From the NCBI GenBank assembly GCA_002633005.1, contig NMRA01000340.1:230425-294424 (forward strand): a stretch of 64,000 nt of DNA. Reading direction: 5' to 3'. Position numbers and translations under genes: made by a program. This document shows, piece by piece, positions 6,205 through 61,771 of this stretch (positions are counted from its first letter, which is position 1; the number at the start of each line of letters is the position of its first letter). This DNA comes from Phoronis australis (taxonomy: Eukaryota > Animalia > Phoronida). Under the pieces are notes generated by a model. The model was not told where the DNA came from and did no database searches. It was given only the letters and a program-made list of their open reading frames with translations.

Positions 6205-10448
<4,244 letters not shown>

Positions 10449-28100: not shown

Positions 28101-31100
28101 ATTGGTAACGGAAATGGAATCTTATCACCGTAAGAAATATCACAATACCGATTTTATAAAAATAAAATGCCCAATTTAATTTTCATGTTTAGCCAGCTGA
28201 AGAAGACTCGAGATCCGAGTAAGAAATATCAAATTGGGGTTGTAATTCAACCAACAACAATTTCTGGATCTTTGTTGACCATTAACATGTAAGGTAAATG
28301 CACCCCATTTTTTGAAATTTGTCAAAATTTATTTGGCACATGAATATGCAGCTCTATAAACGATGAAATAGTTAACATTCCAGCGTGACAATAACAAGTT
28401 CCAAGTCTATGTTGTTACAAAACGCTATGGCATGAAAATGTTTTTGAACGAAAACTACCTCAGGCACAGAGATATCTACAAGGGAAGGTTGAGCGGAGAA
28501 GATCTTTTCAACTTCGACTAGGATTTGGAATGCCAATTTTCGATGAAGTTTCTTTTGGTCTCGGTAATGTTGTAGCAAGTCCTTCATGAACTCGGGCGTA
28601 ATTTTGTTGTCTTCAAACTTTGGTCCGTTATAGTCATCTTCAATGCCTGAAAGTATGAGACGTAGCAATGACAGAAATTAACAGTTCAATGTTATACATG
28701 AATGGTTCACCATTATCAATGCAGTTATCTTAGAAGACAAATGCTTAGGTTCACATTTTGGAGTGAAACCCTTTGTTTTGCTTCTCGAATACAGTGAGTC
28801 AGCGGCATTGACCAAATGGAACACATTCAGGTCTTCCACATGAAAATTCACACCCACTAACTTCTATTTTGAATTGATTGATTTTGACTTGACGTAATTA
28901 TTACTGTTGGGGCTTTGAAACCCAGAGAAACACACTTGTCTAGCCTTGTGTTGGAACAAATATCAAAACATTATTAACTGAGGACAACTTGAATTATCCA
29001 CATATGAATATAGTTGCATTATTCTACCACACAGAATAAGGTATATTGCACACAGTTGGATTGTTTTACAACGAATTACAAGGTATGTTCTACAGAGTGG
29101 CATTATTCGACACCACTTTAAGGTATGCTGGACACAATATTGCATTGCTCTACAACACAGTGCAAGACATATTGCATAGATATGCAAGGTACATGGTAAA
29201 CAGTTGCATTGCTTTACAGTTTAGTACAAGGCAAGTTGCACATAGATGCAATCCCTTACAAAGTATGTAGTCTGTAGCTGCATCACTGAACAACACTGTG
29301 CAAAGGACGTTGCACACAGTTGCAAGGATTTACAAGGTAAGGTATGTTGGATTTAGTTGCATCATTGAACTACACTGTGCAAAGGACGTTGCACACAGTT
29401 GCAAGGATTTACAAGGTAAGGTATGTTGGATTTAGTTGCATCATTGAACTACACTGTGCAAAGGACGTTGCACACAGTTGCAAGGGTTTACAATGTAAGA
29501 TATGTTGAATTTAGTTGCATTGCAATACAATGAAAGTTCCCCTCACTCATGTTCTCCAGGTTAATCTCCTCAGCAATCGACTTTTGGTGGTGGTCAACGG
29601 CGATTGCTTTGTTGAAAGCCCTCATTTTGACTATTTTACTGCACTCTTGGAACTTCAGCTTAGCATCACTATCTCTGGGCCGAACTTTGACTACCTAGTG
29701 AAAAAATAGTTTCCAACAAACATACTAAAAGAATAATTCAAATTTTTAACCATTAGTCAAATACATCATTCATTTAAAGAATAATGTAAATAATTAACCA
29801 TGCAAACTCGTGCGCATTGTGTAATGAAAATTTGTCCTTCTGGAACTTCAAATATCTCCGATGATGTAATGCCAATTGGTGCGTTCTGCCATAACCACCC
29901 TTAAATATATCGATTTACGTTCCAGTTTTACACTATTTCAAGTAATGTAGGTTAAATGCTACACTTGCATTACAACCATGATCTGAATAATTTGCAGAGA
30001 CCTAAAATTCACCATGCCAACTTAGATGTACATAAGAAATTTAAAGATGCCCAGATGCACATTCTTGAAATAGTTACGGTCTCATATAACACATAAGCGA
30101 ATTGCGAAACTATTTTTATTTTGGAATATTCAAACACACTTCGCAACATCTGGCAGTGCCAATATGGCATCATCATACCATTTACACAGAACACCAGCAA
30201 AATGAAGCTTCCACACAAACTATCAGGATCATTACACAACACTTCTTCTTTCAATAACTAAATACGACTGGTCGCCAATTCACTTTACAATGAATCTTGT
30301 TACTCGTGTAGTGACCTTGATTCTCCAAAAACAGAGGAATACAATTTAGCAAACATAACATTTGAACTTTTCTCCGTTTTATTAATGATCAAATTCTGTT
30401 GACCTACTTCAAAGTAATAAATAACCTAAACATGACCAGGGAATTGCCTAACTTTTGCCCGTGAATGATGCCCCAGCTCCATTTTACGGATAACTTGCTG
30501 GAAGTTTATTGTTTCTCAAAACCAGAAAAAACAGCACACCTTCATAATGATTGAACAACTACTACAACATATCTGCTGCAAACAATAATCGATCCATTTT
30601 GGTGCCTTAACCATGGAATTGGACGGATAAATTTTTCGCAATTAAAAAAACAAAATATCAAATTTAGGGTAAGAAGGCACTGAATTATAAGAATTGTGTT
30701 CAAAACCTCCAATTATGCGAAAGAAGTCAGAGTCCATCAATACCGTACGTTTTGTTTTATTATGGAAAATCAGGGTCTCTACTCATGTTGAAAATCAATT
30801 CAAAAGAAAAAGTACCACTGAGCAACAATACACCACCACCTTTCCAACTTACTGTTTCAAAGTCTTTCAGTGCGAGCTTGAATTTGCCCAGGGCCATGTT
30901 GGCTGAAGCTCTCCTATAATAGGCCTTGACATAGTTGCGGTCAATTTCCAGCGCTTTTGAAGCATCTTCCAGTGCAGAACCATAGCATTCAGTTTTTATG
31001 TAGGCAAAACTTCTGTTGCCATAGTAAGCTGCTACAAAAGGGTATGTGTCGATTGCCTCACTGTACAAAGCGATGGCTTGAGTGTAGTCTTGCTCTGTCA

Positions 31101-31663
31101 AATGATTCAACATAGCATTTTTACACAATTGTACAATCTTAGCCCTTGTCTTTGAAGTAGCTGAATGTTTCTGCTTCGAACTCTGTTCAAGACTGAATGG
31201 TGCCTAGCCACCCGTGAATTGTATTAAAAGTCAAAGACTAAAGAGACATCGATCGAGTAAATAAAACACTCTCCCCCATAAACAAGAAGTCATAAGCCAC
31301 AGGACCCCTCATTTAGCGGATAAAACTTAATTCCTAAATATTTTTGCACCTGTAGAGGTATCTGATTTAAAGAGCCATGCAATCAGTGAACAGCGAGCGC
31401 GTTATATCCGACAAGTCACAGGGAACTGAGTAACTTTGACGTAGACTAGTTGAAGGTTGTCGAATCGGATCCATGAATGATGGGAGAAATTGACCTTAAT
31501 AGAAAAATGCCTGGCAATGAGTCGGAAAGGTCTTACTTTTAAAAAATTCATTTGCTTGTTCTTTCACAGCTTCAGCCTTTACTTTCAAGTCCTGGTCGTC
31601 TTTTCCATTTAAATCAGAAAGTATTTCCTTGGGATCTCCCGCAGAATCATTCGGAGAATCCAT
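19151..31663 (-). CDS. PPP5C: Serine/threonine-protein phosphatase 5 (TPR + PPP catalytic domain), 11 coding exons
   Basis: Exons 31663-31537, 31094-30853, 29694-29547, 28646-28459, 27415-27317, 26491-26386, 24994-24852, 24119-24032, 23257-23038, 21153-21072 and 19210-19151, all in phase. It has three N-terminal TPRs, then GDIHGQ, GDFVDRG, RGNHES, HGG, LLWSDP, RSHE, SAPNYC and the C-terminal [12 protein letters not shown]. Confidence 0.97.
19255..19375. repeat. 37-bp tandem repeat x3.3 next to the last PPP5C acceptor
   Basis: GATACATTAATGTAACCCAGTAACCTGCATATTGCCA at 19255, 19292 and 19329, with a partial copy at 19366. Confidence 0.9.
19378..20518. mobile_element. Non-autonomous DNA transposon (hAT-like) with ~120-bp terminal inverted repeats
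   Basis: The left end CAGGTGAGAAACATGACCGCTGGTCCTCTAAA...GACTGAACATG is the reverse complement of 20375-20518. There are GGACCG subterminal repeats and imperfect ATTAA(C/A)A flanks. Confidence 0.72.
26492..27316 (-). other. U12-type (minor spliceosome) GT-AG intron of PPP5C
   Basis: The 5' site is GTATCCTTTG (U12 consensus RTATCCTTT). The branch site TTCTTTAAC lies ~10 nt before CCAG, with no long polypyrimidine tract. The intron separates NPY|LFNGD. Confidence 0.88.
26915..27307. repeat. 36-bp minisatellite (~10 copies) abutting the U12 donor
   Basis: ACTAGCTGGACACACCTGTCAGTCAGACTAGTAATA repeated head-to-tail with no spacers. Confidence 0.92.
29040..29522. repeat. 79-bp tandem repeat (3 good copies plus degenerate copies) next to the PPP5C exon 3 donor
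   Basis: AGTTGCATCATTGAACTACACTGTGCAAAGGACGTTGCACACAGTTGCAAGGATTTACAAGGTAAGGTATGTTGGATTT at ~29276, 29355 and 29434, decaying toward 29040. Confidence 0.88.
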
Positions 31664-33535
31664 GCTTAAATTGAGTTTCACTATTTTATTAATTCAGTAG
31701 AAAATAAAACAAACTTACAGGAAAGACTACGAAGTGAAATTCATATTAAAAGGTCAGTATCAAAACAAAAATAGTAATTTACTGTTTAATGTGATAAAAC
31801 AATCTGTTATTCTATTTCTCAAAAATGCGTTCTCATTTCATTTTAAAGAGGTTCGTGATTTTGTCAAAACTCTTCGCTGTTCTATTGTTTGATCAAGAAA
31901 GGGGCAGCGGCAAATTGGACGAGTGTTCACGACCTATTTCTTCAAGTACCGTCTTCCGCCAAATCCCAGCATCAAAGCATTTTCTATTATTTCGGCATAT
32001 GAACTTTAACGAGGGATTTAATGTCTTAACATAAGTTCTGACAGACATGACATAATGGCCAGTATCCAAAGTATCAGCAAGAGCGGTTTTAAAACAAGGC
32101 TAGAATGCCGCTCACGCGGCGTTTATTTCGTTTAATCCTGTAACAGGAATGATCTCAATACATTAGTTTAGCACAATATAGCACAATCATCTGAGACGGA
32201 GCGGGTACAACTGCATGTTGTTTGTGCTTGCGTTATTACGCTACAGCTAGGCTACAGCTAGGTAGGTTTGCTATTATATTGTTAGTATACCCGCGGGACA
32301 ACTCGTCGATCCGCGTCACAGCCACTTCAGTTGGGTGCGAGAACCGCGGCACCCTTTGCCAAAGTAAGGGCTAGTAAGGCTTTGGCAGTCATTTGACGTG
32401 CTAACCGCGTTAACGCTGATTTAGCAATCAGATCAAGACGGGGAAGTTTGCCTCGGCTGTCTGTGAACCGGTAGGGGTTATTTAGATGTATTTCAGAAAA
32501 AAAGCTGTAAGAGTTGCCCTTTAGATCACTTAATTTCCGCGTGGCCCTGTAGGCCTATCAATTTGTTCTCTGATTCAATTACTCATTGTGAGAAGGAAGG
32601 CATTGGTCGTGTGACTTGATTTGCGGGTTGTGGGAAATTTGACAGGACGGAAATGCTTACATGCTCGGCGCATTAAATGACATTCCGCGACAACTTATCT
32701 CAATCAATAACTATATCCCCCAAAATCGAGACGGCTGAGAACGCGTTCAATAGGGTGCGTACGTGAATCATGGACTTATCGTTGGCAGCTTTGTAGCACA
32801 ATTAAATTTTGACCCCGTTGTTGAACAATGCACCTGACGTCATGCGCCATGGCAATCATACTTATCCAGCTGATAATATTGAAATTTTGTACAATCCAGC
32901 CCTGATAAACAGGCCTGTCAGTGATGACACCCGGCCAGCGGGAATTATACAAATCTGTTGACGAAGTACAACTGAGGTACAGTGAAACGGGAGTTCGCAA
33001 TGCTGGGCCAATTGGTCACCGTTACAGCTTGACCATAAGCTTGCCACTTGTTTTCGAATCGGTCAAATGACCCCAAGATCCACATAGACCTCCCAATTTG
33101 TAAACATGTTTCTTATACCTGGAATTTCCGAAAATAGGCCCACCAAAAGTACGACTATGGGCATATTTTCTGAAAGTTTTCCAAAAGATCGCCCATTGGC
33201 GTATTTTCGTTAATTTTTTGAAAATCTAATGGATTGTTCTGTTAGCATAGTATGAAAGGCAGTTTTAACACACTGTGTTTGCTTTAAACCCAAATATATA
33301 TTCGTTTTTTGTCAGCCAAACAAAGCGAAATACAATTTTAACAATGATTGTCAATACCGAACATTTCCTAATGCGTTATAAAGATCATCAGTCGCCTTTT
33401 GCTCCCAAAACCGTGAACAGAGATTTCTGGTGATGGGCGCTTTGATATCCGAAATCTCGGTGAACGGCCTACTACCATGACCAGTAAATATTCATAAGAG
33501 TGTCACGTGACCTATATTTCCTAGAATGTAATTAA

Positions 33536-34263
33536 AGGCGAAGGCAACATTTTGTCATGTCACTTTTAGCAAAAATCAAGGTCTGTTGATTATCCCAGAC
33601 ATATTTTCACTTAATTACAGCTATTCGTAATTTAATTAATTTCTCGTCCTCTACTCCCGAAGTGACCTTTTTGTTAGGCAAGAATTTCTTGCCAATTTCT
33701 TGTCATGCAGTCTGACTGTGAGAGCAGTCGAGTCGGTCATTGTTCTACCTCTGTTGTGATAAGTTCGGTCGTCGTTTGCTTTTGCGAGTCAGTCAACATG
33801 CCGCACAGTTGCTGCGTACCAGGATGTACTCATTATCGTCTCACAGGCACTTCGTGTGTACCGGGATGTAAGCAGTTTGAGTGCTCAAGTCACCATCCAC
33901 TGGGAGTGTGTCGCGGGACACTAGAGCAAGTGGAACAGTTCTTCCTCTGTACGTGAGACGATAATGAGTACATCTCGGTAGGCAGCAACACCGTGGCATG
34001 TTGACTGACTCGTAAACAAAAGCATACGACGACCGAACTTATCACAACCGAGGTAGAACAATGACTGACTCGACTGCTCTCACAGTCAAACTGTATGAAA
34101 AGAAATTGGCGCGAAATTCTTGCCTCCCAAAACGTAACTTCCGGAGTAGACGACGAGTAATTAATTAAATTACGAAAAGCTGTAAATAAGTGAAAAATAT
34201 GTCTGGGATAATCAACGAACCCTATTTTTGCTAAAAATGACATGAAAAAGGTTGTCTTCGCCT
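33536..34263. mobile_element. Palindromic non-autonomous Kolobok-like DNA transposon (~310-bp TIRs, TTAA TSD, THAP start)
   Basis: TTAA|AGGCGAAG...CTTCGCCT|TTAA. 33536-33845 is the imperfect reverse complement of 33953-34263. The arms contain ATG CCG CAC AGT TGC TGC GTA CCA GGA TGT (MPHSCCVPGC), a THAP zinc-finger N-terminus. Confidence 0.82.
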
Positions 34264-35181
34264 TTAACATATACGAATAAAATCAAGTTCACCGTCTAGC
34301 GCGCTACGAGATTTTTTCTACTCGAGTAAATATCCGATTTTCTCATGCAAAAACTTATAATCTACCACACTAATAATCACGCCATCGCCCCCATGCATGT
34401 AGGGGTTCCCAGAAAGAACAAAGTCGGACCAAAAGGAGGCGAAAACTGAAATGTTGCTGACCTCGACGACCAATAAGGTTCCTTGAGTAAATTTCAGGAA
34501 CTCGTTGCTTTTAAGTTCTGAACTTAGCGATCCCAGAGTAAAACGTGCAAATTTACACTTCCTGCAGTTTTTTCGGCGTAGTATTCCATTTATCGATTTG
34601 CCGGATAGAGTCGACTTCAGTTAATGGAAGAACTGTCTTGTTTCCAGTTACAACGTTCTTTCATTTGTCTTTTCTTTGTTGACTGAGTCTCAGTGGAGGT
34701 ATCCCTCATTTCCGTGATGACACAAATAGGGACGGAATGTGTGACGTCACCATACTAGGGGTAGTCTGGGATATTTCGCCATCTTGGTTGTAACCCATGC
34801 CACTTAAAGGAAAATTACTTTAGGTCAAAAGCTGTAACGGGAAATCAGTTAAATTCTGTTTTAGAACACACGTGGTAAATATACTAATACATGTGCTTGG
34901 TTTCATTTCTACCGTCTTGTTCGCCAAGTTCGGGACCAGTAACTTAATAAAAAAGGAATTAATAAAATCAACCAACGACTTGGTGTGCTCTCACATGAGT
35001 CACTTGGTAAAACGGGCATCATGTATTTGATCATATATTCTTAAAAAAAACTGATCTCAAGCGTATTGGACAATCCATGGAATAGAGCAAGTGTACAATG
35101 AGACAATGTTTAAACATTTCAGGTAACACAGAAATGAAGTTGAATTAATTGACTCAACACAAACGAAGGGCTTACCGGATC

Positions 35182-38100
35182 ATGTCACAAACTAGTCCAG
35201 GAGAAGACGATAGCGCCATCGCTGGTGAGCAAAGTCATTTGCAAGCTGTTGGCTGCACCCTGCATACAAAACTATAGAGTTTCAGTCTTAGACATTTTTC
35301 TCCTTTTTCTGTTGATATATTTTAGTAATTATTTTGCTTTTTTTCAATTAAAGCGACATTAAACCGTGCTTTTTGTCAGCCAAACAAGCTTTAATTTGGC
35401 CTTTTATCTTTATAAAATTGAACTCAGTTTGTTTCTTAGCCAAATTTAATCTGATTTCAGGGTTTCTAAAGAACTGATAACTCGTCATTCCTTGAAAACA
35501 AGGTTCATAAAATTTCAGGTCAGGGCGTGACCTCAAAGTTTGTGAACTTGGTCTGAAGAATTAACGAGCTGTACGTTTTTCCGAGCTCAGAGATAATTTT
35601 TGAACTGAGTGAGGGGAAAGGTAACTAAGGGAAATTTCATAACGGTAAAGACAGAATGTACCGGCTTAACACCCCTTTAATTAATTTATTTATGTATCAG
35701 AAATACCGCTCATTGGAGGAACCACTAGAAGTTCGTTTGTTCGTAAAGAGCTCGAACACCCGTTTGCTTTGCCCGTTGTAATCAAACGGAAGGTGACGCT
35801 GCGACTATCATTTACTTTTTTAATTTACAAAGCCGTAACTCCCTAGTTCCTTCGTCCTCAAGAAACACAAAAAGTGTATCTCAGACTCTTAAGTTTTCTA
35901 AGTTACGTGAGATTCTTAGTAACTGGTCGTTTTTCTTTTATCTGTTGACTTATTCCGTTGTGCAAACTTTCTTTGCCATCCTTGCTTATCACTTATGGAT
36001 GTAGGAGGTCGTGAGGTGATCCCAACCACGTCCTCAGAAAAACGGCATGCCTGCGCAGTTGTTTTTTTTTGGGGGGGACAGAGTGTGGAGGCGAGCACCC
36101 TAAACTGGCTGTATTTCTATGATTCTGTACCAACATTGTAGCGGTCTCCATGTTCATCCTCAACAATGAATTGTGCTCTCAATTATTCTTGAGGCGGCTT
36201 CGGCGCAGTGTGTCCAAAATACTATAAAACAGTCGTTGTTTTACCACAATAATTAATTTATGAAACATTTGAATATTTTTCATTACAAATATCAAATTAT
36301 TTATATTGAAAAAATAATGATTTTGCGTTGAGTTTTTGTAATTAACGCGAGATAGAGAATAGGCGAACACAAGCGCAGGCGCTAGCTGTGACATAATTCG
36401 ATCGCAGGCGCTAGTTGTGACATAATTCGCAATAGAACGGCATATTTGATTTTATTAAAGAAGAAAGTTTTCTTGTAAGATTATTCAACTCAACTTATTT
36501 TTCAAACCCGACAACATAACATAAACGTCATCTAATGAAATGCAGCGGGACAATCCTGATGTTTTAATTGGCTCACTTTCGAACAGGTCACAGATGCTCA
36601 TTCTGTGACCCTGTTTGAGCTAATTGTGAAACGTTTTTGTGTAGGAGTCATTATGCTAAAATTTGAGGTACTCAGAATTCAGAAAAAGTTTACTTACGTC
36701 GATGTAAGAATTCAGTAAATACAATTAACGCCATTAAAAGTAAAACTGACCTCATGTACGAAATTATTCCGTTTTCAGAGGTTTTTTATTAGTAATTGAA
36801 TAGAGGTAGCTTTTTAACATTTCATATAAATTCTGCATTTTTGCGATAGGTGGCTCAACTAGATTATCAGTTTAGGCCATTCAAACTGAAAAATTAATTC
36901 GATCACCCCCGCCCCACTTTCTTTTGCAAATTCATTAGGCACTCAGACCAAAATACAAAATACAAATTATGAAAATCGAAAAAATTAAGGATTAATTGGA
37001 ACTGTGTCGAACCCCCTTAAATCAAAATCGCCATGTGTCGCACTTTACAGTGCTTTCACGTTTGTCACCCCTGTTAAGTTACTCAGCCTGCACCCTGAAC
37101 GTCTAATCACGTCATTGATTGTATTGTTTTAGGTGGCAAAATAGCAGCGTTGTATGCGAGGGAGACTGAACTGGCAACTTTAGTCATTCAAGAATCGAAA
37201 AGTGATCTTGAGTTGGAAGCAGCAATGTTAAAGGAAATAGGAGAGGTTCACGAAGAGTTGGGTATTTTAACGAAATCAGTGAAACATTTTGTCTGGGCAG
37301 GTGGCTTGTACAATGCAGCTCTTGCGCGAACTAACGTTGAGGGATTTGCCAAGGAAATCCAGCAGTTGATCAAGAGAAACGAAATGGCGTTTTGTAAGGT
37401 AGTTGGAGTGTCTCCTGATACGTTGCCTTCAGCTTTTAAGTCGGAGCTCAAAGAAAAACTCAACACAATTCGGCGAAATGCAAAAGACAAAGCAAATGGG
37501 TTGTTGGAACAAATAGAACAGAAATATAGTTTATCTCTTTCTACCACAGAAAGGATACATCTAGAAAAAGACATGATTGCTGATATTCAAAAGCTGTTTG
37601 ATAACATGTGTAAAGACTTAGTGGCACTAGTTCAACATATGATTAGTTTGAGTAAAGACATATTAGGAAAGCCGCCACAGGAATATGCAGCTCTCGCTTT
37701 AGGGTCTTTAGCAAGAGGGGACACAACTCCATTCTCTGACTTAGAGTGGTGCATACTGGTGGAAGACGAGACGAAAGATGTCGACTATTTCAGAAATCTG
37801 ACACGAATGGTTCACATGTTTGTACTAAATATTGGCGAAACACTTCTGAAGTCTTTGAACATCAACTCCCTGAACGATTATGACACCCCTGGTGGTCATT
37901 GGTTCATTGACACCGTAGCACCCAGAGGGTTTCAGTTCGATAGTGCTGCACCATATGCCTGCAATACACCGATAGGACGTCCAGCGCGTGCTGGTAAGCC
38001 TGCGCGTGAGCTTATCAGAACACCTCAACATATGGCTCTGCTTTGTGAGGAGACGACTGCTTTGAATGAAGGTAACAATATTGATCGTATTATGGGAACA

Positions 38101-41100
38101 ACTCTGAAAGTGGATGGAAGTGAGAATGGAGATGGTTTGGTGAAGGAGTTTGTCGCAACCCGAGCTAAATATAAAGGTGAAAGAAACGTGAAACTGAAAG
38201 CTCTAGGTGAAGTTCAAGATTTGATTCACGAGTTTCTTCCGAAACTTTCCTTTCACACGGTGAAGCGGACGGTGCATGACATCAAACAAGACATGTATAG
38301 ATTACCAACGTTGACTGTCACTCTGTTCAAGACACTGTTCTGCTTGGAAAGTGACAACACTTGGGACATTTTGAATGAGATGCAGTCGAAGGATAAATTG
38401 ACTGAACAAGGAGCCCATAATTTAAAATTCGTTGTGTCTGTTGTTGCCCTTCTGAGACTGGTGACCTACTCCGACAAGTGTCACCAGAATGAACTCATTA
38501 GCATTCTGAAACCTACTGACCCCGCTGCCAGCAAAGCTGACAGCAGCGACGCAACCAACTTCATGAAAGTTAAAACCCTGGTATTCCGCTGCTACTTCAC
38601 CATGGTGCCACTGTGCTACTATTTTAGTAATGCAGATATTAGCATTTGTTTGGACGAGTATTGCATCCCTGATTGTTTCTTTGAACAAGGAGACTTCCTC
38701 GTTGGGTTAATCGAACTTCAATGCCTTGCTTATGAAAGTGCCCGGGACAAATTTGTGTCCTGCATTGAGAAGTCCTGGAAAACGCAACTCGCCGAAAGCA
38801 ATGATTGTAACCCACAGAAGATATTGTACAAAGGAAAGGACGTGCTTTTTAATACCAAGGATGAGTTTGTCGCACAATGCCTTACTCGGATTGGCCAAGC
38901 TTACACTCAAGAAGGGCATCTAAATGAAGCGTTAAAGTTCCTACTCACGGCCCTTAGTATGAATCGAGAAATTCACCAAGAAGATCATCCAGACACTGCC
39001 ATTTGTCTTAATAATATTGGTGGTATTTATTTAGACACCAGTGACTTTGATTTGTCCTTAAAATATTTAAACGACTCTTTCCAAATGTTGACCAGGCTGG
39101 ATGATCGCGTCAAAAAAAAGTCGTTCATGGCTAAAACGCTGGGCAACATTGCCGTCGTTCACATCGAACTATGCGAGTTTGACAGAGCTCTCGAATACTG
39201 CCTCAGGGCATACATGGAAATGAAGGCCATCCATGGAGACCGAAACCACAAAGACGTTGCAACTTCCTTGGTCAATATTGCATGTGTGTACCAACAAAAA
39301 GGTGAATTTGCGAAAGCTTTAGAACATTTCACAGAATCTCAGAAAATGTATGAGACTTTGCATAGGAACAACGACCACCCAGATGTCGTAACCGCTCTCT
39401 CTAAACTTGGCTCGCTTTATACAGACATGGGTTCCGTAGAATTAGGATCAAAATACGTTCAGAAAGCTTTAGAAATGATGTCGAGGATTCAGCAGGGACA
39501 GGACCACCCGAGTATTGCTATGTACTTGAACAGCATCAGTCAATGCCTAGAAGAGCAAGGACGTTTTGAGGAGGCTCTGAAACACGCCAATGCTGCTTTG
39601 GAAATGATGAGAAGAATTTGCAAGGGTAGCGACCATGTGCGTACTAGTGCAGCGCTAAACAGAATTGGAAACATCTACAGGCTAAAGGGGCTACCAGACG
39701 AGGCTATTAGGTACTATATGGAATCCTTGGACATGGCTAAAAAAGTGGCGAGTCGACGTCTGTTGCCCATTCACTAAATGGTATAGGATGTGCATACCAA
39801 GACAAATATCATTTAACTTTAGCATTGCAGCATCATAAAGATGCATTAAGCATGTTCAGGAGGGTGCTAAGTACAAGTGAACATCCAAATATTGCAGAAT
39901 GCTTGAACAACATAGGCACGACCTACTTAAAGATGGAAAACTATGATGAAGCCTTACCTTGCTGTGTAGAATCGCTAACTATGACGTCACACATACACAG
40001 AGGCGCAGACAACTTCAAGGCTGCGGTGACATTGGCAAATCTCGGGTCTATTTACAGGGATAAAGAAGATTATGACGAAGCAATGCAGTATTACAACCAA
40101 TCGCTTGAAATGCAAAGAAGACTCCGCCTTGGTAAGGATCACCCAGCCATGGCTGATACATTAATTAACATCGGGTTTGTAACACATAAAACAGGAGACG
40201 TTGAGGCAGCAGTGAGGCACTTCGATGAAGCACAGCGTATTCTGAAGGTATTCTACGGGGATGAGGCACATCCCAGTACAGCCAAATGCTTAAACAGTAT
40301 TGCAAGCGCTATTTACAAAGATAAGCCCGACGTAGCTTTGACGTATTTAGAAAAAACGCTCGAGATGCAGCGAACACTCATGGGTGACCATCTGTCCGTG
40401 GTGTCCACGTTAAAAGACATCGGAGCTGTCCATTACTTTATGGGCCATCTTGATTTAGCCTTGACCTATTTTGGAGAATCTTTAGAAGTGGCGCGACGCT
40501 TAAAAGGTAACAGTCCCGTTGTTGTTGATACGCTAAAAAACTTGGGTTCCTTGTATTTTGCTCAGGGTCAGGTTGACTTGGCAACCCCACTCGTTGAAGA
40601 AGCATTAATTATGTGTAAGAAGATCTACTCCTCAGACAACCAAAATGTCACAGGTTTATTAGACATGCTTGGACTATTTTATCTTGCCACGGGTGATGCT
40701 GCTTTGGCTGAGAAATACTTTGATGAAGCCTGCGAGACAAGGCGACGGTTATACAAAGGCAGTGACCACAAAGATGTTGCTGAGTCTTTGAAGAACATGG
40801 GACATGCCCGTTTGGTAAACGGGAACGTCGCAGAGGCGTTGAGATATTATTTAAGCCACGTACAAATGACCATGCGTCTCCATAAGAATTGCGACCACAT
40901 AGATGTTATACAATCACTTAGTTTCTTGGGAGAAACATATGGACGGGTTGGTGATTTCAATTTAGCTGTCGAATACTGTGCCAAGTCTTTAGAGATGGAA
41001 AAAAGAGTTCATCTTGGCAAAGATCATCCCAATATAGTGACCAGTCTAGAACGCATCGCTAATTTTTCATTGAAAGGTAGAAATTACGAGGGGGCATTAA

Positions 41101-41726
41101 CATACTTCCAGCGTTCCCTTGACATGCAGAAAAGAATGCATCCTACAGAGAATCGAAAAAGTATTGTTGACACTTTAAGAAACATTGGAGACATTTACAA
41201 AATACAATGGGAAATTGACAAAGCAATGGAATATTATGCTGAGGCTCTTGAAATGGCTGAAAGAGTGTATAGAAAAGGTGACCACGAAGACATTGTGGAG
41301 TTGCTGAAGAAAGTCGGACAAATGAATATGTATTGCGGGCCGCTCGACCTAGCGGTGGATTATTATAGTAAAGCAATCGCTATGAAGAAACGAATGAATG
41401 GAGAGGATGGGGATGTAGCGGCGCTTCTAAAAGTCATTGGAAACATCTATAGAATGCATAAAGTATTCGACTTGGCCACGGCCAAGTTCATGGAATGCTT
41501 AGACATAAACAGGCGATTACACAAGGGTGAAGACCATGACGACACAGTGGGTGCTTTAAAATGTCTTGGCTCTAATTACGTAGACCTGGACGACTTGGAC
41601 AATGCGATAAAACACTATAATTTGGCCTTGGAGATGTTAGGTAGACTGCGTGCGAGCGAAGACAATCCAGACGTACTTGCGCTCCGCAACACTGTCAAGA
41701 AACTTAATGAGAGAAAGGGACACTAG
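35182..41726 (+). CDS. GlnD/GlnE/DUF294-like nucleotidyltransferase fused to ~22 TPR repeats (~1545 aa; one frameshift at ~39745)
   Basis: A short exon 35182-35224 (MSQTSPGEDDSAIA G|gtgagc) splices in phase to acceptor ttttag|37133, followed by a 4.6-kb exon. It has the pol-beta-superfamily motif LGSLARGDTTPFSDLEWCIL, a distal GFQFD, a helical DIKQDMYRLP...LLRLVTY domain and 42-44-aa TPRs (HPD.A..LNNIG). ORFs 37150-39777 and 39825-41726 join by a -1 shift at MAKK/GESTSVAHSLNGIG. Confidence 0.85.
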
Positions 41727-42329
41727 GGTGACATGTTAGTATATTTTCGCTGTTGTGAAATGTGTAGAATAAATTTGACTGCATATTAAAACGTGCGACC
41801 GTGTGTGACTAGGCAATTACAGATGGACTGAAATGAAACACTCACCTAAAATCTCCAGTCACCACGTGGTGGTACGTCTGGTTATCCAACAATTTTATTC
41901 TCCGGAATTCGCAAGCATTATGTTGTGTCACACAAGGTTACTTTCGTTGTAGGCTCGTTCCAGCCTCCACTTTGCAGTCGGCTGCGTGCAAGCGTTGACT
42001 TCTTATTTAGAAAGTCACATGAGCTAACTCGTCTGACAGGTGTTGCATTACTAGTATACGTAGACATTGAGATTATTAAAATGTGTTTTCGTTACTCAGC
42101 AAGCATCAATTATTGTGATGAGTGACCAATCCGTGCCCTTGTTGTGGGGAGCCTTAGTTGCTAAGTTATTCGATGTCATATCTATGAGCAGTCATGAACC
42201 ACAGTAGGCCTACATGGGGGCCGCCTTGTCTTTGGGTAGGTACAAGTCCAGGCTCAGTGAGGCTAAAATGTGGAATTTGCTTGTAAACGGACCATTGGGC
42301 TTTAGTGCCGCAAGTGGTCTACGTGCGAT

Positions 42330-42580
42330 CATGCACGCATCCGGGGGGGAGGCTCGAGCGAGCTCCCCTCCCCATTTGGCGAAGTGGGCAAAAGGTCCGC
42401 CTCAGAGAAACAAAAAGTCCGGGAAAACGAGACAAAAGTCCACTAAAATGCACAGTTCATAGCTCTGAACAGGGTACCCCGTTTTTCTTTTGTTTTTTTA
42501 GACTCCCGTTATTTTGTTAGTAAAAGGTCCGCATCGTCAAAAATTCGAACCCCCTATATTTTACGGTGGGTGCGCGCATG
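42330..42580. mobile_element. GC-rich MITE
   Basis: Termini CATGCACGCATCC...GGGTGCGCGCATG with internal AAAAGGTCCGC repeats. Confidence 0.55.
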
Positions 42581-45514
42581 GTGACTAGCTTTGTATAACG
42601 CGCCCCTGTTTTCTCCCATCGGTAAGATCATATAGCGTTGATGTTCAGTGATGTGGACCAGACCAGTGGCGTACTTTGGGGGTAAGGTTCCAACAGACTT
42701 GTGCTGTCGCCAGCAGAGATCCAGCCCCCAAAATTAAAAAATGGACATAAGCGTAATGAAGTTTTTCTTAACGAGTGGGGCTCAGAAAATTGATTACAAC
42801 TGTGTAACATTTGGCCCCCGTCGATATCAATTCCATCCCGTCGCCAACAGTTTCGCACCTGCCCCAGTTTTGTCCCCGTTCGCAGTCAATTTTCAGCGCC
42901 ACTTGTCCTTCACGGGCTTAACGGTACACGAAGATCCGCCACGAGTTTTATGACTTTAAAAAACATAGGCACCTCATATGTTTTCTCGTTGCTTTAGCGG
43001 AAAAGCGCAGTCTCGCAAAAATTTGAACATATAGACCTAATTCTGGCGGCGGACATTAAAATCCAAAGCGAGGCCCACTGCGATAAGGTGGCACTGAACA
43101 GTTAGGCTGCGGCCGCGGCCAATTTGCACTGCCAAAATAATAAAATTTTGTGGTAGGTCAAATTTGGGGGCATTTTGCTGGTAAGCATTGCATGTAAGCT
43201 CAGTAAATGTGGTTTGCTTGTATTTGTGAACATGCTGAGAATGAAAAGAGGCCATTTTCTCGGCTGTAGCTGTACTCTTCTTCAAAATGGTGGCCCCCTG
43301 TTGCAATTGTGCATTGCTGTGTAGCAACTGAGAAATTGGCCGCAATTTCAGGTAGTCGTCAAACAAGACAGATTTGCAAAAAAACTAGTTGGTTGACGGT
43401 ACTTTTGGACCACAGTCTTGGAATCGGTAGGATATTTGCTTTCGGAATCTAATGTTGGCTTTAGTCGAGCGTCGGCAGGGACGTGGTGGTTCAGTTGGGG
43501 TCAAAAGTGCTGCCCTTATTTTTCTTAGTCTACCTTGGTTTTCACTGGGAGTGGAAGAGTCAAAAATACAAGAAAGAATACAGTTTCTTCGCTCATCTGT
43601 AGGGCTTGTGATGTGAAATGACTCAAAACTTTTCTTTATTTGAATGCAGTTTTAGACGGAGTGAAGAAAAGGTGAAGAGTCAGTTGACGTGTGTTTTGAT
43701 AGGCAAACCCCTGTGAGAACTGTTCTGTGCCTCCTAAACAAAACAGAAGTTGACATTGCGTGAGTTAAATGGCCTGGCCGGTCTTTCGAGTCCAACCTGG
43801 ATATTAAATCTTTGAAATGGGTCGATAATTAACCACAGAGACGTAGAAAAATACATTAGAGAACAAGTTAATGCACCAAAGACTTGTCTGAGGTAAGGGT
43901 ATAATTTCTTTCGGAAAACTAGGTTCGAAACATGAAAGGTAAATGTGATCAAATTGCGGCGATCGTCACGGTAGTGTTACGGATTAGGTATTATGCTGAA
44001 TGCAGGGTTACGTTTCTTCTCGTAAATTGTTGCTAAAAATGCTTTCTACACGAACCAGGCCATCTTCTCGTATTGTTGACGAGTTGAAGATATATTCGAC
44101 TGTGGTGGCTCATTGCACTTTGCTGTCACGTGCAATTAGTCACATCTGGTTTAATTTGTTGATCAAGAATAGCATATCAAGCATAGCCTAGGTCCTGGTA
44201 GTGGGGTAGGGAGTACTGGGACTAACAGTTGATTTGTCATTGATCTGAAAGAATAATTGATGTTATTAAACATATTTTTATTAAAATAAAAAACCAGGCT
44301 CGTAATTGACAAAAAAAAGTTATTTGACTATCAATTCTGCTTTCTTGGTTTCAATAATTCTTACGTCTATTTCATGACCAAGTTTCTGAACCAAGTTGAA
44401 TTTTAAAATTAAAACATATTGGGAGTGACGAAGTGGGCTTATATGAAAAGCATTAAAGCGACGATGGCTGGGTGATACTCTGGGAGGGGTTACAGTATAA
44501 TATGCGCGTATTTATGCTCATGCGCCTATGTGTTGAGCTACACATCCAACCGGAATAAGGCGCATGCGCCTGTATGCTTGTTCCTTAAACAGATGATAAT
44601 TTCTGGGTTTACATAGAACTAATATGTCGTTGCGTGGGACCCCCTCGGCCTGTAGAGCTTGATATCGAGATAACGCACTGTCAGTTCTTTCGAAGACCGG
44701 AAATCAAATCCGGTCGAAACCAATTTTACAATCATGGTAAGTGGTCTGAATCAAAACTTGGTTTTCGTGATGGAAGGTGGGTTTATAGTCAGAAACGTTC
44801 AAAATAGTGGATGTTGACTGTATTCAGTTCAACATTACTGTACAAAATTCAATAAAACACTGACAGAAAACATCCAATTCAGGACCTAAGCAGAAATGAA
44901 GCATAAGCGTGCGCCTGTATGTGAAATACGGGAACAAATAATTTTCCTTTAAAACAACGCATTATTCCGGGTAAAGGCGCGTGAGCCTAAGAATGGTTAA
45001 TGAGGACATGTTTGTTGGAATCTTATGTAGAAAATAACTGCAGGCAGTCTGGTACGCGTTATACCAGCCTTATGAGGCCACTCGGGTGGGCCCAATGCAC
45101 TGATCACCTGGAACCATTTTCATGCTTTATTAATATATAGAACCTTATTTGAGAAAACATCTCTTTCCTAGTATAAATTTTCACCCAAGCATAGTTGTCT
45201 GCTACTGACTTAAATCAGCCATCAAATTTAACGATTTCAGAGACTGCCCATGTTATTTAATACATTGCATACCAAACAGCCAGAGATTTAAGATGTAATT
45301 TTAAAAAGGAAAGGAACATCAACAAATTCGTATCTATTTGTGAGATTGCACGACTGTATTATCGCTCAACACGGCAATAGTAACGAAACAATAACAAGAG
45401 ATCGCCCTCGGTAAAAACAAATCGGCTTGTAGATTGTCTGCTTGTTGACTTCAACCTAAATTACCATCTAAAAATTTCACGAATCATCGCACGGCGGTGG
45501 ATTGTACGACATAA

Positions 45515-48500
45515 TCATAGCTTAACGACACGGCGTTTCAGTTTCCACAGTATCCTGTATTTCGGTGCGCTATCGTTTATTCTCCATCGCGAAGACTTCA
45601 TAAATTTCAATGCGTTAGGCTTGTGTTCCACCTTCTTTAAGCCATGTGAGAGCGAAGGAACGTACTGCACATCAGTCTCAACTTGAATGGCATTCTGCAA
45701 AGAAATATGATATTCCGTAAGCTCCCCGCAATTAGTCATAAGGACATATTGAATTTATATCAAATGCACGCAGGGATGCAAGTTTTTAAAAGACGATGGG
45801 TGTGAAAATAAAAGTTGCAAATTGTGCTATTGTAGGAAAGGAGAATTACCAAGAAGTCGAAGTAAAGGTGGTTTAAAGTTAAACCTGGTTTAAACTGGAC
45901 TTAGACCAGGTTTAAAGATAATCTGCATTTCATAAAGGTGGTTTAACTTTTACACCAGTGGTCTAGTAAAACCTGGTTTAAAGATAATCTGCATTTCATA
46001 AAGGTGGTTTAACTTTTACACCAGTGGTCTAGTAAAACCTGGTTTAACTCCAATTTAGACCTGGTCTAAGTCAGTTTTCATTTCACCAACGAGGGCTATA
46101 TTCTTTAGACATGTATTAAGATCTTAAACCATGTTTAACTTTAGACTTGGTCAGACCCAGGTTTAACTGTTAAATATGTCAGACTTGCATGGTATAGGTA
46201 CAACTGAACGATGCCGCGGTGTGCAATTACGACGCAGTTTTAGAGCGAAAATGGACTATTTTCATTATTCAGGTTTACTACGACACGAGATCAAACGTAA
46301 CAGGGGCGGATCCAGGATTTTTTAAAGGAGAGGGGACGGTCAAGGACTTTTTGGAAGGGGGGACCAAGTCAACAATTTGAAAATTATAGTTTTGATATCA
46401 TTAAAATCAAGGGAAAAAGGGGGCTCCGGACCCCTTGACCGCCCTGGATCCGCCTATGTATAGACCAGTACGTGCTGGAGTGTGTCCTGCGGATTCCTCA
46501 GAATACGACTGGTCGAGCAGGGCGTCATCGTCGTAAGCACTACGGATTTGACTTAAGACAGCATCTTCTGATTCTTCTGACTGAGTTCCACCTCCACTGT
46601 TCTCCGATTCAATGTTGCCGGGAAGGGGTCTTGCCCCCCCTTTTGGCCGCGAAAAATAAAAACTAAAATGACACGGAAATAAATTTGGGCATTTATCATG
46701 TTACATCTAATCATGAGCATGTTCTTTAATGAGTGTTGGGCACACAAATTACATTTTTCCTCATGAGAAAAGCTTTTAGACCATTGTCGTAAATGTCTGC
46801 ACTGATTCTACTGGTGTATGCCATTCTATACCCACGTGATCAAGGTTTCATTGAAGCACTTCAATAGTTTCTTTGTTGGGTTTACCCACCTCGACACAGT
46901 GGGATGCCTTTGACTATTTTAAACCTGGTTCTACTGAACCAGCTCCCTGGTCTAGCAAAACCAGGCTTTCAGACTCTTAAACCATGTTGGTGAAATGCAA
47001 GTTAGGTCTAAAATTAGACCAGGTTTAGGAAGACCAGGGTTAAGTCTTAAACCTGGTTTTGTTAAACCACCTTTATGAAATCGACTGTTAGTGCCGGTTT
47101 CGTGAAGTGACTTAAACACATAGGCGGATTTACGGGGGGGGGGGATCCAGGGGGCTGACGGCATGTGTTGTTGTACCGTGCCGTTCGGGCGACAGTATCA
47201 GTCGAGGGCGACAATATGTGTGACAACACTGATGGAGTTTCAACGACTCTCAGCAGTACCACATTAGTTTACCTTAGTGGCGTTATCCCTACTTCGTCCA
47301 AACGAGATAAAAACAAGGAACTCGGCCCAGACGCTGTAGTTCCATTACTATTTAGCAATATGGGTGCGTTAGACAGATTAGAGTTCATCATCATTACGTT
47401 TTGGACTTTGGTTTACACATGACAACAGCACATACAAAAGCAATCACGTGTACACAAACCGGGAACATGGCATAATATTTCCCACCGTGAACTCCACAGA
47501 CACTGGTGAATATCTGACATTTGGTTATTTGATGTGGTGTACTGTGGCAAAGGAACGCTCTTTGAGAGTTTCAAGGACCGGCCAAGAGTCTGTAATTATA
47601 GTATTTGTTGTACATAGTGACCTGTGAAACGGGTCTGCCCACTGAGGGGTTCGAAGATCAGGGAGGAGTCTACAGTTGCACGATTTGTTGTATTGTCCTG
47701 TACAGAGAGACTTCCTATTGGCAGCTTAAATGGCCAGTTGTAGGAACATCACATAACTAATGGCTCATTGGGTATGAGTCCGTTGTCTTACAGGATTTGC
47801 TCTCCAAGACCGTAGGGACTGTCCTTCGAGAGGTTCAAAGATTGGGAGGGCATTCTGTAGAGGCGAGAATCTCAGTGGCACAAACGTCTCGGCTAATCAC
47901 ACAAGAATTCGCTAGATATCGACATGTATTATAAGCGGAGCTCGTGATCGCACTAGCTTCCTTCGCGAGATTTTTGCGTCTGCAGAACCCAGCACAATTA
48001 TATAGGGGCAGTTTGGGATTTGATGTAGAGTCCCATGTGGAACGGGGAGAGATTCTTGTACCATTGCAAGAGTTACATATTTGTTATGAAATCCTGCACC
48101 ATCTTTCTCGCAAATGCGAGTTCTGGCGTCGGAAGGTGATTTCCACGAAGTGATTTCGCGATAAGTTTTATTTATACACGTAAATGTTCTTTGAGGCGAG
48201 AGCCCACATATGACTGTTCAGCAATACGCACCTGCACCAAACTGATCTTGCTATTGACAAGTTTGATTCCAGACACTTCAGGGATAGGAATACCTTTCTG
48301 ACCGAGATCTTGAACAGAAAGAAAAACATACAGTTGAGAGAAAGCTAACATTGAGTTGTCGTTGCACTCTTGTAGCATTACTTGTTCATGTACAACAGCA
48401 GGTGGCAGATTCCTTCACAGGGACACATATGTTGTATTGTTGTGTTAAAATGTAGCTGTAAGCGAGTGATTTCAATGATTCGGAGATGGAATGAACTAAA

Positions 48501-51500
48501 GCAGACTTACAGGGACATGATCAAGCTCAATTACAGCCAACTTGGAACAACAAAAAATACAGTCAGGTTAGCGGCAAAGAAACAAAACTGCAGTCCCGTT
48601 TTTATTTTATTTTATTTTATTTGATTACTTCAACAACTAACCAGATGTTTTTTTACTAAACACACTGTCTTGTTTTCACTAGTTTACTATGTGGCTTGCT
48701 GTAAATTTTGTGCAGTTGTTATTAGTTATATTCCGAGTTATGGGATCTCTATAAAACACTGTATGCCATTAGAGATGACAATACCTAAATGTAGTGCTGT
48801 CAAACTATAGATCAGACAGCACTGAAGGTTTACTACTACGAATCTAGAGAATTCTGGCCATATTAAATATTTTGAAAAAATGTGCAGCACAGCCATTCAC
48901 AGTAAATACTTATAACAAGAGCAAGGCAGAGCGTTGAAATGCGCCAACAATTGCACCGTATACGGTATCCTTCTAGGGTTGGTACCATAAAGTGGCCAGT
49001 AGAGGTCATATATGTAGTATGTTGTACTTTGCAAAATGGAAAGGCATGGTCATTGTCTCCTCAATAGACTAGGGGCAAAATGTGAGTGATCTTCATAATA
49101 CAAGCACATCCTATACATCAGTTGCTTAAAGCACCACAGAAACATAGAATTAAAAACAAATTTACCAACATACGAGATAAGCACAGCATTAGAATGCCAG
49201 AAACAAATTTCTACTTGGAACTTTTCCTTCATAGTCACGAAGTAACACAAAGTATACACCTGAAGACCTATGAAAATACAGAGGTAAATGTAAAATACTA
49301 AAATTGCCACTAGAGGCATACCGGTAGTCAGAATCATCATAAAGTCGTCATTGTCCGTTGTCAACATCACATAAACACACTTGCTAAATTTAGTAAAGAT
49401 CCTGCAAACGGTTTGGGAGATACAGCCATGGGCGCAAAAAAAACTGACACTAGGAGGCGCCAATCAAAGTCATGGGAAATTCAGCGTCAACCGTCCTCTT
49501 AATACTAAGAACATTCATGCCAATTTTCACAATCATACTTAGAGTGGTTTGGTTGATAGAGGGGTGGACGCCAAAAAACAGACTCAAAAACAGTAAAAAT
49601 GGCCACTGGGTGTTGCAAACTAGGTCGAACCCATCCGAAAACGGGAAGATAGCGTCATCGCACTAATAGGTGCCTACATACCAAATTTCATGAAAATCCG
49701 TTAAGGACTTGTGAAGATACAGAGGTAAACGTAAAAAANNNNNNNNNNNNNNNNNNNNNNNNNNNNNNNNNNNNNNNNNNNNNNNNNNNNNNNNNNNNNN
49801 NNNNNNNNNNNNNNNNNNNNNNNNNNNNNNNNNNNNNNNNNNNNNNNNNNNNNNNNNNNNNNNNNNNNNNNNNNNNNNNNNNNNNNNNNNNNNNNNNNNN
49901 NNNNNNNNNNNNNNNNNNNNNNNNNNNNNNNNNNNNNNNNNNNNNNNNNNNNNNNNNNNNNNNNNNNNNNTAGGTGCCTACATACCAAATTTCATGAAAA
50001 TCCGTTCAGGACTTTTGAAGATACAAAGGTAAGCGTAAAAAAATAAAATTGCCACTAGGGGGCACACCGGTAGTCGGATCCGTCCGAAAGTTCGCACATG
50101 CCGTCCCATTCATGAATGGAACATATGTGCCAAATTTCATGAACGTATGTCAAAGGGTTTTGGAGATAAAACACCGGACGCCGGACGGACGCTGCCCGGA
50201 CGGACGGACGGACGGAGATGACGGCATAATGCGTCCACATATAAATATGTGGGCGCATAAAAATGATATCTTTCAACTGCAGAAAATAAAATGCAAAGTT
50301 TTTTCCTTTAACTGCCGTAATAAACCGACCCACAACAGTTCGCTGTACACTCGACTTACCGTTTAACTGTTTCTCAATGAAGTCTTTGGTGGCGAAACGA
50401 AGAGTGATATTCAACGCTCGTTCCTAAAATGACAATTCAGAAGTTTCTTTTGACCTTAAACTGCATCGGATGGTTGGAAAATGCGTCATTAATGTACGTA
50501 AATTTATTGTTTAAGCCCACCGAAAACGACTTTGACACGAACAGCACCATATAAATAACTGCAGACTCATTAAAACTAAACAAGTTTTGGTTAATTTGGT
50601 ACATTTTTATAATGACGAAACAAACAACTCCTCAAACGAAAAGCGAGGCTGTGGGTGTGTTGCTCAACAGGAACAATGTGTGTAATGATGCTGAATCATT
50701 GATGTATTATATTCCCTGTTTCTGAGATAATAGCTCGAATCAAATGGCAATTTGCTACAACATATGGCTAGGATTCAAAGAATTTCTGAATGTGCTAAAT
50801 GTGTCGCACTGTCGGCCTTGCGTAATTGCAACTTTTCAGTTCATTTTTATGGAAAATACATTTTCTATTAAGTAAAATATACCAAGTAGATCAGAAACGC
50901 CTTAAGAAGGTAACATTGCCCTTAAACTGAATTTACATACCTAAACTCGTTCTGAAACAATAGGTACAAAAGCGAAATCATGTAGCCTGGTTTGTTCCTT
51001 AGAAATTGCGGGGAGATTCACGCGCTTAGGAAAGGGTAGACGCGCAATAACACAAAGAGTTTACAGTCTAGTTTCATCGTCGTTGTTATGTTGTTCAACA
51101 ATAACACGTGAAGGGTTGAGTAAAAATGAAGAATCAAGATGCATGATCAGAATACGTTGATACACAAGACAAAAGGTAATGAGCCATGAAGGCTTCTTAG
51201 CCCTAGGCTACAGCCACATGTACCTGTACGGTAGAAGAAACGCCGCACTCACTTAAAGTGGAAAATAGCCAATGCCTCGTGTAGGAAGTGAACTTTTCGT
51301 TTAGTTCACTTACCGCCATAAAATGAGTCTAGCTCTGATGATAAGTGATGTATGGGTTTGCAAAGAATTGACAGTTCGTTATTCCTTAAGAGTATGCTGG
51401 GCGCATTAAATGACACGCCGTGACAAGTCAACTTGTATAGCCTGATCTCAAGCCATAACGAATAGTCAGTTCATTCCGAGCACTGATATCATCTCTCAAT

Positions 51501-60500: not shown

Positions 60501-61771
60501 CACCGCTAGAATCCTAAGTATTTATTTCTTACTGCCGTAGGACTCCACTTCCGTTACAAACACAAGTCACTTGCATTACGAACATGTAGATGATCTATTT
60601 TCGAAATTGCAATTTTAGGGTTGGCCGAACCCAACAAACGCTGATTGAGACGTCGTGTTTTCTAGAGTCGGTGATGGTTTCGATGTTCTTTTTGGGAACG
60701 GAAATAGTATCCTATCACGGTAAAGAATATTACGAGACCAATTTATGAAAGTAAAATTCCTCATTCAATATTCGTTTTTAGCCAGTTCAAAAGGGCGAAT
60801 GTAGCTTTAATTAAAACATCTAATAAACAATTCACTCAGGTCGGTGTTCTATTCGACATACTCGGGTAACCACGGCAGATACATACTTCTACCGCGGGTA
60901 CCAGTAACTATTCAAATAAATGTTCAAAGACAGGAAGTTGTGGTGGAAGTAAATTGGTGCATTCCCGTTTGTAATGTTGTACACAGGTTTAAAGAAGATA
61001 TAATTTTTGTCCGAAGGTTTGCGCGACATTGTAAATTATAGGATGTCTCCAAAATGTAAACAAAAATCAGAAAATACTCTGAAAAGGAGTACGTCCAGGA
61101 TTTTTTCTCGTCCCAGGAGCCCCAAAATGTGTTGTACAAGGCATAGAATTTAGGAAAGCCCCTATTGGTTCTAGTAACACAATGACAGCGTGTGAATTAC
61201 GTTAGACCAATGTAACTACTTAGTACGTGGAAACTTAACCACGTTCTCCACACGAGGACCATTTTGCGCCCATCACGTTTGCTACTTCCGTTCAATTTTC
61301 ACACAGTTTTTACCAGATAAAACTTGAAATTTTCAGCTTTTAACTAATCTCCGACTTGCAGTGAGGCATTAGCGATGCCTACGTTTTGTACAATTGATGG
61401 TTTCTGCCAAAACTTGACGATGTCTTGCGATTCAAACTTTGGGAAAAGACTAAAAATATAATTACATTAGTTACAGTAAAACTATCTGTGGATACATACT
61501 CCTGAGTATTTTTGAGAATCATTTTGATCACCCTGTATTAATTAAGATTCATTTCACGCACCATCATGTAATTTAACCATTGACTATAGATACAAAACCC
61601 ACGTAACCTGATGAGGGGAGTGTTAAACCGCTTGTAATGGTTTGTTTACGTTTACTTACGCCGTCAAATCGTAGTCAACTTTAATTCCTGAAACTTTTTG
61701 ATTGCCGTGTTGGTCGGGGAGAGTCTTCCCTTGGAAATCCTTGGTGAGAAGGTCAATAGCCACATCGCTAG
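45515..61771 (-). CDS. LBP/BPI (lipopolysaccharide-binding / bactericidal permeability-increasing) family protein; first exon not found in window
   Basis: In-phase exons 61771-61660, 60324-60193, 59442-59369, 59099-59009, 58719-58656, 58117-57962, 57817-57644, 57233-57153, 56224-56054, 53753-53686, 52116-52065, 50423-50360, 48308-48232 and 45694-45515. Motifs are GDWHYK, DSGSFD, C...FHGGASWLYNLF, LC, IDYSL, GEIF..PF.P, MSTIWLSDY, FLNTTC..CIG..P..YPN, GIPIP and ETDVQY. Confidence 0.9.
45862..47085. mobile_element. PIF/Harbinger-like non-autonomous element with nested MITE
   Basis: Inverted ends CATTTCATAAAGGTGGTTTAAC / GTTAAACCACCTTTATGAAATC with many AAACCTGGTTT subrepeats and an internal tandem duplication at ~45908-46045. 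A nested CAGGGGCGGATCCAGG...CCTGGATCCGCCT MITE lies at ~46301-46456. Confidence 0.6.
48914..50262 (+). mobile_element. Helentron-associated (HINE/DINE-1-like) element spanning the assembly gap
   Basis: It starts AACAAGAGC and has tandem CCAAATTTCATGAAAATCCG-containing units and a (GGAC)n microsatellite at ~50175-50215. It ends in the 3' hairpin TGCGTCCACATAT..ATATGTGGGCGCA followed by TAAAAA. Confidence 0.72.
54530..54945. mobile_element. MITE with tandem subterminal repeats
   Basis: (ACTCCGAAGGG)-like repeats on the left and inverted (TTCGGAGTAA)-like repeats on the right. Confidence 0.6.

Follow-up and report, generated by a model that had tools for sequence, protein, structure and literature searches.

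Among animal AMP transferases, only the Fic enzymes and SelO are named in two reviews, and more are expected (PMC8097203, PMC12409994; all papers cited here were seen in part, and what is said of them refers to those parts). FICD/HYPE, an animal AMP transferase, recognises its substrate through tetratricopeptide repeats (TPRs; PMC8097203). In Neochlamydia, the NEX2 family comprises 50 proteins in which a DUF294 domain is combined with TPRs in the layout F-box, optional OTU, DUF294 and TPRs; they have been proposed to be type III effectors, and a type III signal was demonstrated for a tested member (PMC4209131). The bacterial GlnD, GlnE and DUF294_C domains, together with that of DrrA, have been filed as an inactive HEPN branch (PMC3710099). 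Two amphioxus proteins have been tabulated, without comment, as nucleotidyltransferase (NTase)+HEPN+TPRs (PMC8195603, in source data 1 for Figure 4), and the bacterial PolB-NTase alignment of the same paper starts with a different motif. We found no paper devoted to this NTase-TPR family in animals, with subscription literature thinly covered and the tables of bioRxiv 2022.07.19.500537 possibly listing the enzyme; the part seen of the polymorphic-toxin paper PMC3482391 holds nothing on it. Here we describe an NTase-TPR gene of the phoronid Phoronis australis, located in a 64,000-nucleotide stretch of contig NMRA01000340.1 (the window), for which an earlier note made from the sequence alone had proposed a TPR-gated nucleotidyltransferase of innate immunity.

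The gene is real and expressed, it belongs to a large unstudied family, and its allele in the window is truncated. Eight read sets were compared with the locus (X1 to X4 from one study, X6 to X8 from another). The contigs of X1, X2 and X3 were read as transcripts, since the intron is skipped exactly and has little or no depth. The locus is transcribed, which the earlier note had made a precondition of its proposal, and the start codon it had chosen at 35182 is correct, being followed by a start exon, a GT-AG intron and a long exon. However, the region 37133-41726 is not one open frame. It consists of two frames in the window (37099-39777 and 39741-41726), the first carrying helical hairpins, the DUF294 domain, a helical domain and seven TPRs and the second carrying 15 TPRs, and the loss of 10 bases at 39742 that separates them had been overlooked. 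The 10-base segment is present in the contigs of X1, X2 and X3 (three sets) and in all three RNA reads of X7, and it is absent from an unspliced DNA contig of X4 (depth 37.5), as in the window; the site has no coverage in X5, X6 and X8. With the 10 bases restored the frame is intact and 1548 residues long. The window allele, as read from its sequence, would yield 895 residues with the enzyme part intact and 7 of the 22 repeats, and no transcript of this short allele was seen in X1 to X8. The window sequence may itself derive from X4, and alleles can be lost in contigs, so these sets do not give the frequency of the short allele. A homopolymer error as the cause of the frameshift was considered and rejected; 10 bases are missing, and the contig of an independent read set lacks them as well. 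RNA reads over the exon have one orientation and are few, with a depth of mostly 1-5 when about a fifth of each run is counted.

The catalytic signature GSLARGDTTPFSDLE and the Asp of GFQFD described in the earlier note are in place, and so are the helical segments DIKQDMYRLP...LRLVTY and, at the N-terminus, EIGEVH...AGGLYNAAL. The NTase fold models well (Table 1), and the catalytic residues are kept in homologues, the G in 248, the D in 248 and the E in 249 of 250 aligned rows. D281, likewise conserved (Table 1), is the likely third metal ligand. In the predicted model the signature lies on a strand-helix-strand unit, as is usual for the pol-beta superfamily, and the NTase core is followed within one fold by a HEPN-like helical domain, as in the DUF294/GlnE-GlnD-DrrA branch. 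What had been called a coiled region is indeed helical, and consists of two long helices which align with DrrA's own N-terminal helices and are part of the enzyme domain. The assignment to GlnD/GlnE/DUF294 holds in part: Pfam DUF294 (PF03445) exceeds the score required for a match (E 8.5e-8, 32.6 bits vs 21), whereas GlnD models, compared with the enzyme domain only, stay far below their cut-offs (10.9-13.4 bits vs 519-799), with no GlnE model among those listed, and SidM_N falls short (E 3.7e-4, 20.3 bits vs 27). DrrA is the top-ranked structure match, 3 Z units ahead. DrrA also ranks first when the PDB is searched with a profile of the domain, at an E of only 0.02; the single protein gives no significant match there, and a full-length profile is dominated by TPR matches. 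Animal cGAS and OAS are absent among the structure matches listed, from which exclusion of the CD-NTase fold does not follow. Past the enzyme domain, the Pfam matches are all to TPR families, without the GEF and P4M domains of DrrA. The count of about 22 diverged TPRs proved exact, their mean pairwise identity being 26%; in contrast, the repeats of Owenia P0122 are near-identical (82%).

With a profile of the domain, 1132 clusters (50% identity) match at E up to 1e-30, and the number rises to 2557 when E up to 1e-3 is allowed. The listing covered the best 150, and a taxon name was obtained for 7 of 30 family proteins looked up. Named animal members come from Branchiostoma (many), Owenia, Dendronephthya, Paramuricea, Styela and Hydra, with expansions in amphioxus, Owenia and Hydra. 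Named bacterial members come from Neochlamydia, where 11 places lie on one plasmid, Parachlamydiaceae, Holosporaceae, Rickettsiaceae, Amoebophilaceae and related Bacteroidota, and an unclassified gammaproteobacterium. The genome scan relied on a single 8-residue pattern and is incomplete, no Neochlamydia-titled locus having been returned. A metagenome scan gave 28 further loci, none close to the window protein, whose nearest relatives share at most about 35% identity with it. No relative was found in viral contigs, with none among predicted viral structures at E 0.001, and PADLOC gave two short motif-level matches only. In five relatives (P0071-P0074 and P0076) two or three enzyme units occur per chain, which may reflect genuine tandem proteins or the merging of gene models.

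In a tree of 44 rows, picked from 250 with unnamed protein rows excluded, the window row groups with 14 marine-invertebrate rows and lies outside the Neochlamydia clade; the branch that separates this group from all others is not starred. The tree is unrooted; the 13-15% identity to GlnE and GlnD leaves too few columns for rooting with them. Four Hydra rows are nested in Rickettsiaceae with starred support, and a single grouping of all 19 animal rows, chosen for testing after the first tree had been seen, is rejected by the approximately unbiased (AU) test (p-AU 1.1e-5). Hydra P0025, which lies on a 50-Mb record and starts with a Death domain, shares 65.7% identity over 938 residues with the open reading frame of the endosymbiont locus L041. 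At least four Hydra loci are of rickettsial type (P0025, P0028, P0030, P0033 and P0038, compared with L041, L019 and L037), with 47-66% identity to endosymbiont proteins. A recent rickettsial transfer into Hydra fits best, the alternative being assembly contamination. The relation to effectors of intracellular bacteria suggested in the earlier note is supported in so far as the family is common to Neochlamydia, Rickettsiaceae and others; the direction, from bacteria to animals, we infer from the bacterial range of the fold, the Hydra case and the near-intronless gene.

Twenty relatives, selected by name or unusual length, were scanned for other domains. Seven of them carry CARD (two), Death (two, one with Roc-COR), IRF, Roc-COR with GT4-conflict, or OTU. 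P0112, P0118, P0092, P0108 and P0111, all from the amphioxus-rich clade, carry Roc-COR-Death, Roc-COR-GT4, IRF or CARD fused to the enzyme. Among bacterial segments, 19 of the 22 scanned show no immune-type domain; the outcomes include one methyltransferase, one ankyrin, two TPR-only and 16 blank segments. In the gammaproteobacterial loci L028 and L034 the enzyme is followed by NB-ARC and then by TPRs, an NLR-like layout. The same unclassified gammaproteobacterium has nine listed loci, with at least eight copies (L014, L028, L033-L035, L038, L039 and L042) of 1200-2460 residues. For the family as a whole, these domain combinations point to conflict and immunity.

We favour, at about even confidence, the reading that the gene encodes an enzyme that nucleotidylates proteins and uses its TPRs as an arm for targeting or control, which derives from effectors of intracellular bacteria and serves defence. 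The DrrA-like domain would attach a nucleotide to a target protein, the TPR arm would select the target or control the enzyme, and the enzyme probably acts in immune defence. Tentatively, and with distinctly less confidence, it is possible that the family adds to Fic and SelO a third class of protein AMPylase in animals, a DrrA-like effector enzyme captured from intracellular bacteria at least twice (in an old marine-invertebrate lineage and by a recent rickettsial transfer into Hydra), which was expanded and made into one-chain sensor-enzymes whose variable TPRs would detect microbial proteins while the enzyme marks a host or microbial protein. Taken together, the results bear out the earlier interpretation in part. 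The third known AMPylase fold is predicted for a large, expressed and catalytically conserved family spanning several invertebrate phyla, and the question of further animal AMP transferases raised in reviews becomes testable with one purified domain. The Hydra copies, which are 50-66% identical to rickettsial proteins and stand in one case behind an animal Death domain, also point clearly to exchange between animals and intracellular bacteria.

Several observations weigh against the favoured reading. A shared fold by itself shows no function, and the identity to DrrA is just 14-15%. D249 of DrrA is a metal ligand (PMC8097203), whereas its column holds Thr in the window protein and Ser or Thr in 24 of the 27 named rows from marine invertebrates, in an alignment below significance. 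The residues of the allosteric Rab site of DrrA (R70, Q71 and K74) are replaced by V, A and Q, the third acid lies 67 residues past the first vs 40 in DrrA, and the motif is D-x-E vs D-x-D. In the unrooted tree the 15-row marine-invertebrate branch has support of 90/84, the branch of the window row is long (1.81), and the AU-tested group was a post hoc choice. Five of the seven fused relatives, from a non-random sample, are without a taxon name, further fusions (EGF, chitin-binding, eIF5A) have the look of joins made by gene models, and Pfam finds no immune adaptor domain in the window protein. It finds no NACHT or NB-ARC ATPase either, the central part of NLR-like STAND receptors. Allelic codon differences are concentrated in the repeat region (27, of which 19 non-silent and 8 silent, in 2790 bases; vs 5, of which 3 non-silent and 2 silent, in 1727 bases; binomial p 0.005), with the region boundary drawn after the data were seen and the variants linked. 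Constraint on the repeats is loose; however, their ratio of non-silent to silent polymorphism (pN/pS) is about 0.6, less than 1, and positive selection is not supported. Expression is low, and the frameshift allele fits a dispensable gene.

These last two points are also what favours an active or fading protein nucleotidyltransferase without an immune role, a captured gene employed in trafficking or other housekeeping, or dispensable. The long branch, the lack of an adaptor domain and the likeness of the repeats to the cargo repeats of kinesin light chain are consistent with it as well. We consider it unlikely, in view of the intact catalytic residues, the expansion in amphioxus, Owenia and Hydra and the fusions to CARD, Death and IRF. 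An enzyme that, triggered through its TPRs, makes a signal nucleotide or a short oligonucleotide in the manner of cGAS or OAS appears rather improbable; it would agree with the superfamily motif held in common, with the NLR-like NTase+NB-ARC+TPR relatives and with the naming of pol-beta NTases among the effectors by which bacterial NACHT proteins make signals (bioRxiv 2022.07.19.500537; whether these are the same family lies outside the part seen). Removal of nucleoside monophosphates from proteins by the same chemistry, as in the N-terminal domain of GlnE, which would undo modifications made by bacterial effectors, is given a low probability, for DrrA, the leading structure match, is a writer, and the bacterial relatives resemble secreted effectors, for which the known case is again a writer. 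A fused MNT-HEPN toxin-antitoxin, in which the helical domain would be an RNase restrained by self-AMPylation, is very improbable: the RNase motif R-x4-6-H is absent from the window protein and present in only 2 of the 27 named marine-invertebrate rows, and the HEPN branch of GlnD/GlnE/DUF294_C is tabulated as motif-less (PMC3710099). An origin from bacterial DNA within the assembly, or a pseudogene that is dead, suggested by the single 4.6-kb coding exon and the frameshift, has next to no likelihood and is refuted for the gene as such by GT-AG splicing, the intact frame in transcripts, intron-rich neighbours and X4 DNA contigs contiguous over intron and exon, the truncation belonging to the window allele alone.

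Table 1. Features of the NTase-TPR gene in the window (residues in P0001 numbering)
Feature	Positions	Strand	Basis
Start exon: part of the 5' untranslated region and start codon at 35182 (14 codons + 1 base)	35123..35224	+	Spliced X1 and X2 contigs spanning 35121-35223, joined to 37132
GT-AG intron, 1908 bases, phase 1	35225..37132	+	Joint 35223>37132 in X1, X2 and X3 contigs and in 2 X8 reads (1 start)
Long coding exon, 4.6 kb, stop at 41724-41726	37133..41726	+	Transcript contigs extend to 41941 (X1) and 42274 (X2)
N-terminal TPR-like helical hairpins	37135..37431	+	
Two long helices (residues 101-130 and 137-177) within the DrrA/GlnE-type enzyme domain	37435..37665	+	Model; DrrA alignment over model 37-505
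Pol-beta-fold nucleotidyltransferase core, DUF294-like	37666..38175	+	Pfam DUF294; models with predicted local distance difference test (pLDDT) 89, predicted template-modelling score (pTM) 0.91
Catalytic signature G-x11-D-x-E, GSLARGDTTPFSDLE (G202, D214, E216)	37702..37746	+	Alignment
D281 (Asp of GFQFD)	37939..37941	+	Asp in 249 of 250 rows
Helical domain of HEPN/GlnE/DUF294_C type; near-invariant K396, R401, R453	38176..38640	+	
22 diverged TPRs of 40-44 residues, kinesin-light-chain/TTC28-like, 7 ahead of and 15 past the break	38860..41680	+	Pfam, repeat count
10-base segment absent from the window allele; frameshift leading to stop at 39775-39777	39742..39743	+	Read-set contigs

An in-frame stop at 35146 lies upstream of the start codon. 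A four-codon upstream frame (35134-35148) is in the same frame as the main start and stops 33 bases ahead of it. The X1 and X2 transcript contigs have 69 and 21 unplaced bases, respectively, ahead of an acceptor-like AG (35121-35123), which may be a further 5' exon or a spliced leader. X3 contigs also contain a minus-strand transcript (34238-42056) with joins of about 41845 to 35258 and of 35176 to 34831, both with minus-strand GT-AG ends; the NTase-TPR gene sits within an intron of this antisense RNA, which also overlaps its start exon. High-copy dispersed repeats, with depth in thousands, lie on both sides of the gene (33600-34470 and 42326-43500).

The window is eukaryotic, since an intron-rich PPP5C-like gene lies upstream and LBP/BPI-like exons lie downstream. 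The former (about 23000-31700, minus strand) is a multi-exon gene with TPRs, a PPP5 region and phosphatase motifs, head to head with the NTase-TPR gene. The latter would be the immune gene named as a neighbour in the earlier note. This minus-strand, multi-exon neighbour (about 45500-62000) has weak support, LBP_BPI_CETP_C being matched by 3 of 11 candidate exon frames, collinear, at E 1.4e-4 to 0.021, all below cut-off. A 240-base N gap is present near 49740-49970 inside an intron of this gene, and a leucine-rich-repeat exon of another gene is found at 8013-8411 on the minus strand.

Compared with the described systems, the window protein shares with NEX2 a homologous DUF294-type domain (27-30% identity; motif GSLAREEMTPYSDLE vs GSLARGDTTPFSDLE) followed by a TPR array. 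However, it is the product of a spliced host gene, and has neither an F-box (Pfam) nor an OTU domain. If the proposed activity is shown, it would be a likely function also for the NEX2-type proteins found in chlamydiae, rickettsiae and Amoebophilus-like bacteria, which are uncharacterised. In relation to DrrA/SidM of Legionella (PDB 6yx5), the sequences are far apart and the TPR array takes the place of the GEF and P4M domains. Unlike GlnE, and GlnD/DUF294 with DUF294_C, the window protein has one NTase unit with TPRs, and Pfam detects no ACT, HD or CBS domain. To the amphioxus proteins of CARD+FN3+TRADD-N+NTase+HEPN+TPR layout there is a link through P0111, which carries the same NTase as the window protein, agrees with the tabulated XP_002605446.1 in length (1299) and in its CARD+FN3 start and is presumably the same protein; their adaptor domains are absent from the window protein. 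FICD/HYPE differs in an unrelated catalytic fold, one or two TPRs and an anchor in the endoplasmic reticulum membrane, and it is the best precedent for how the window protein may work.
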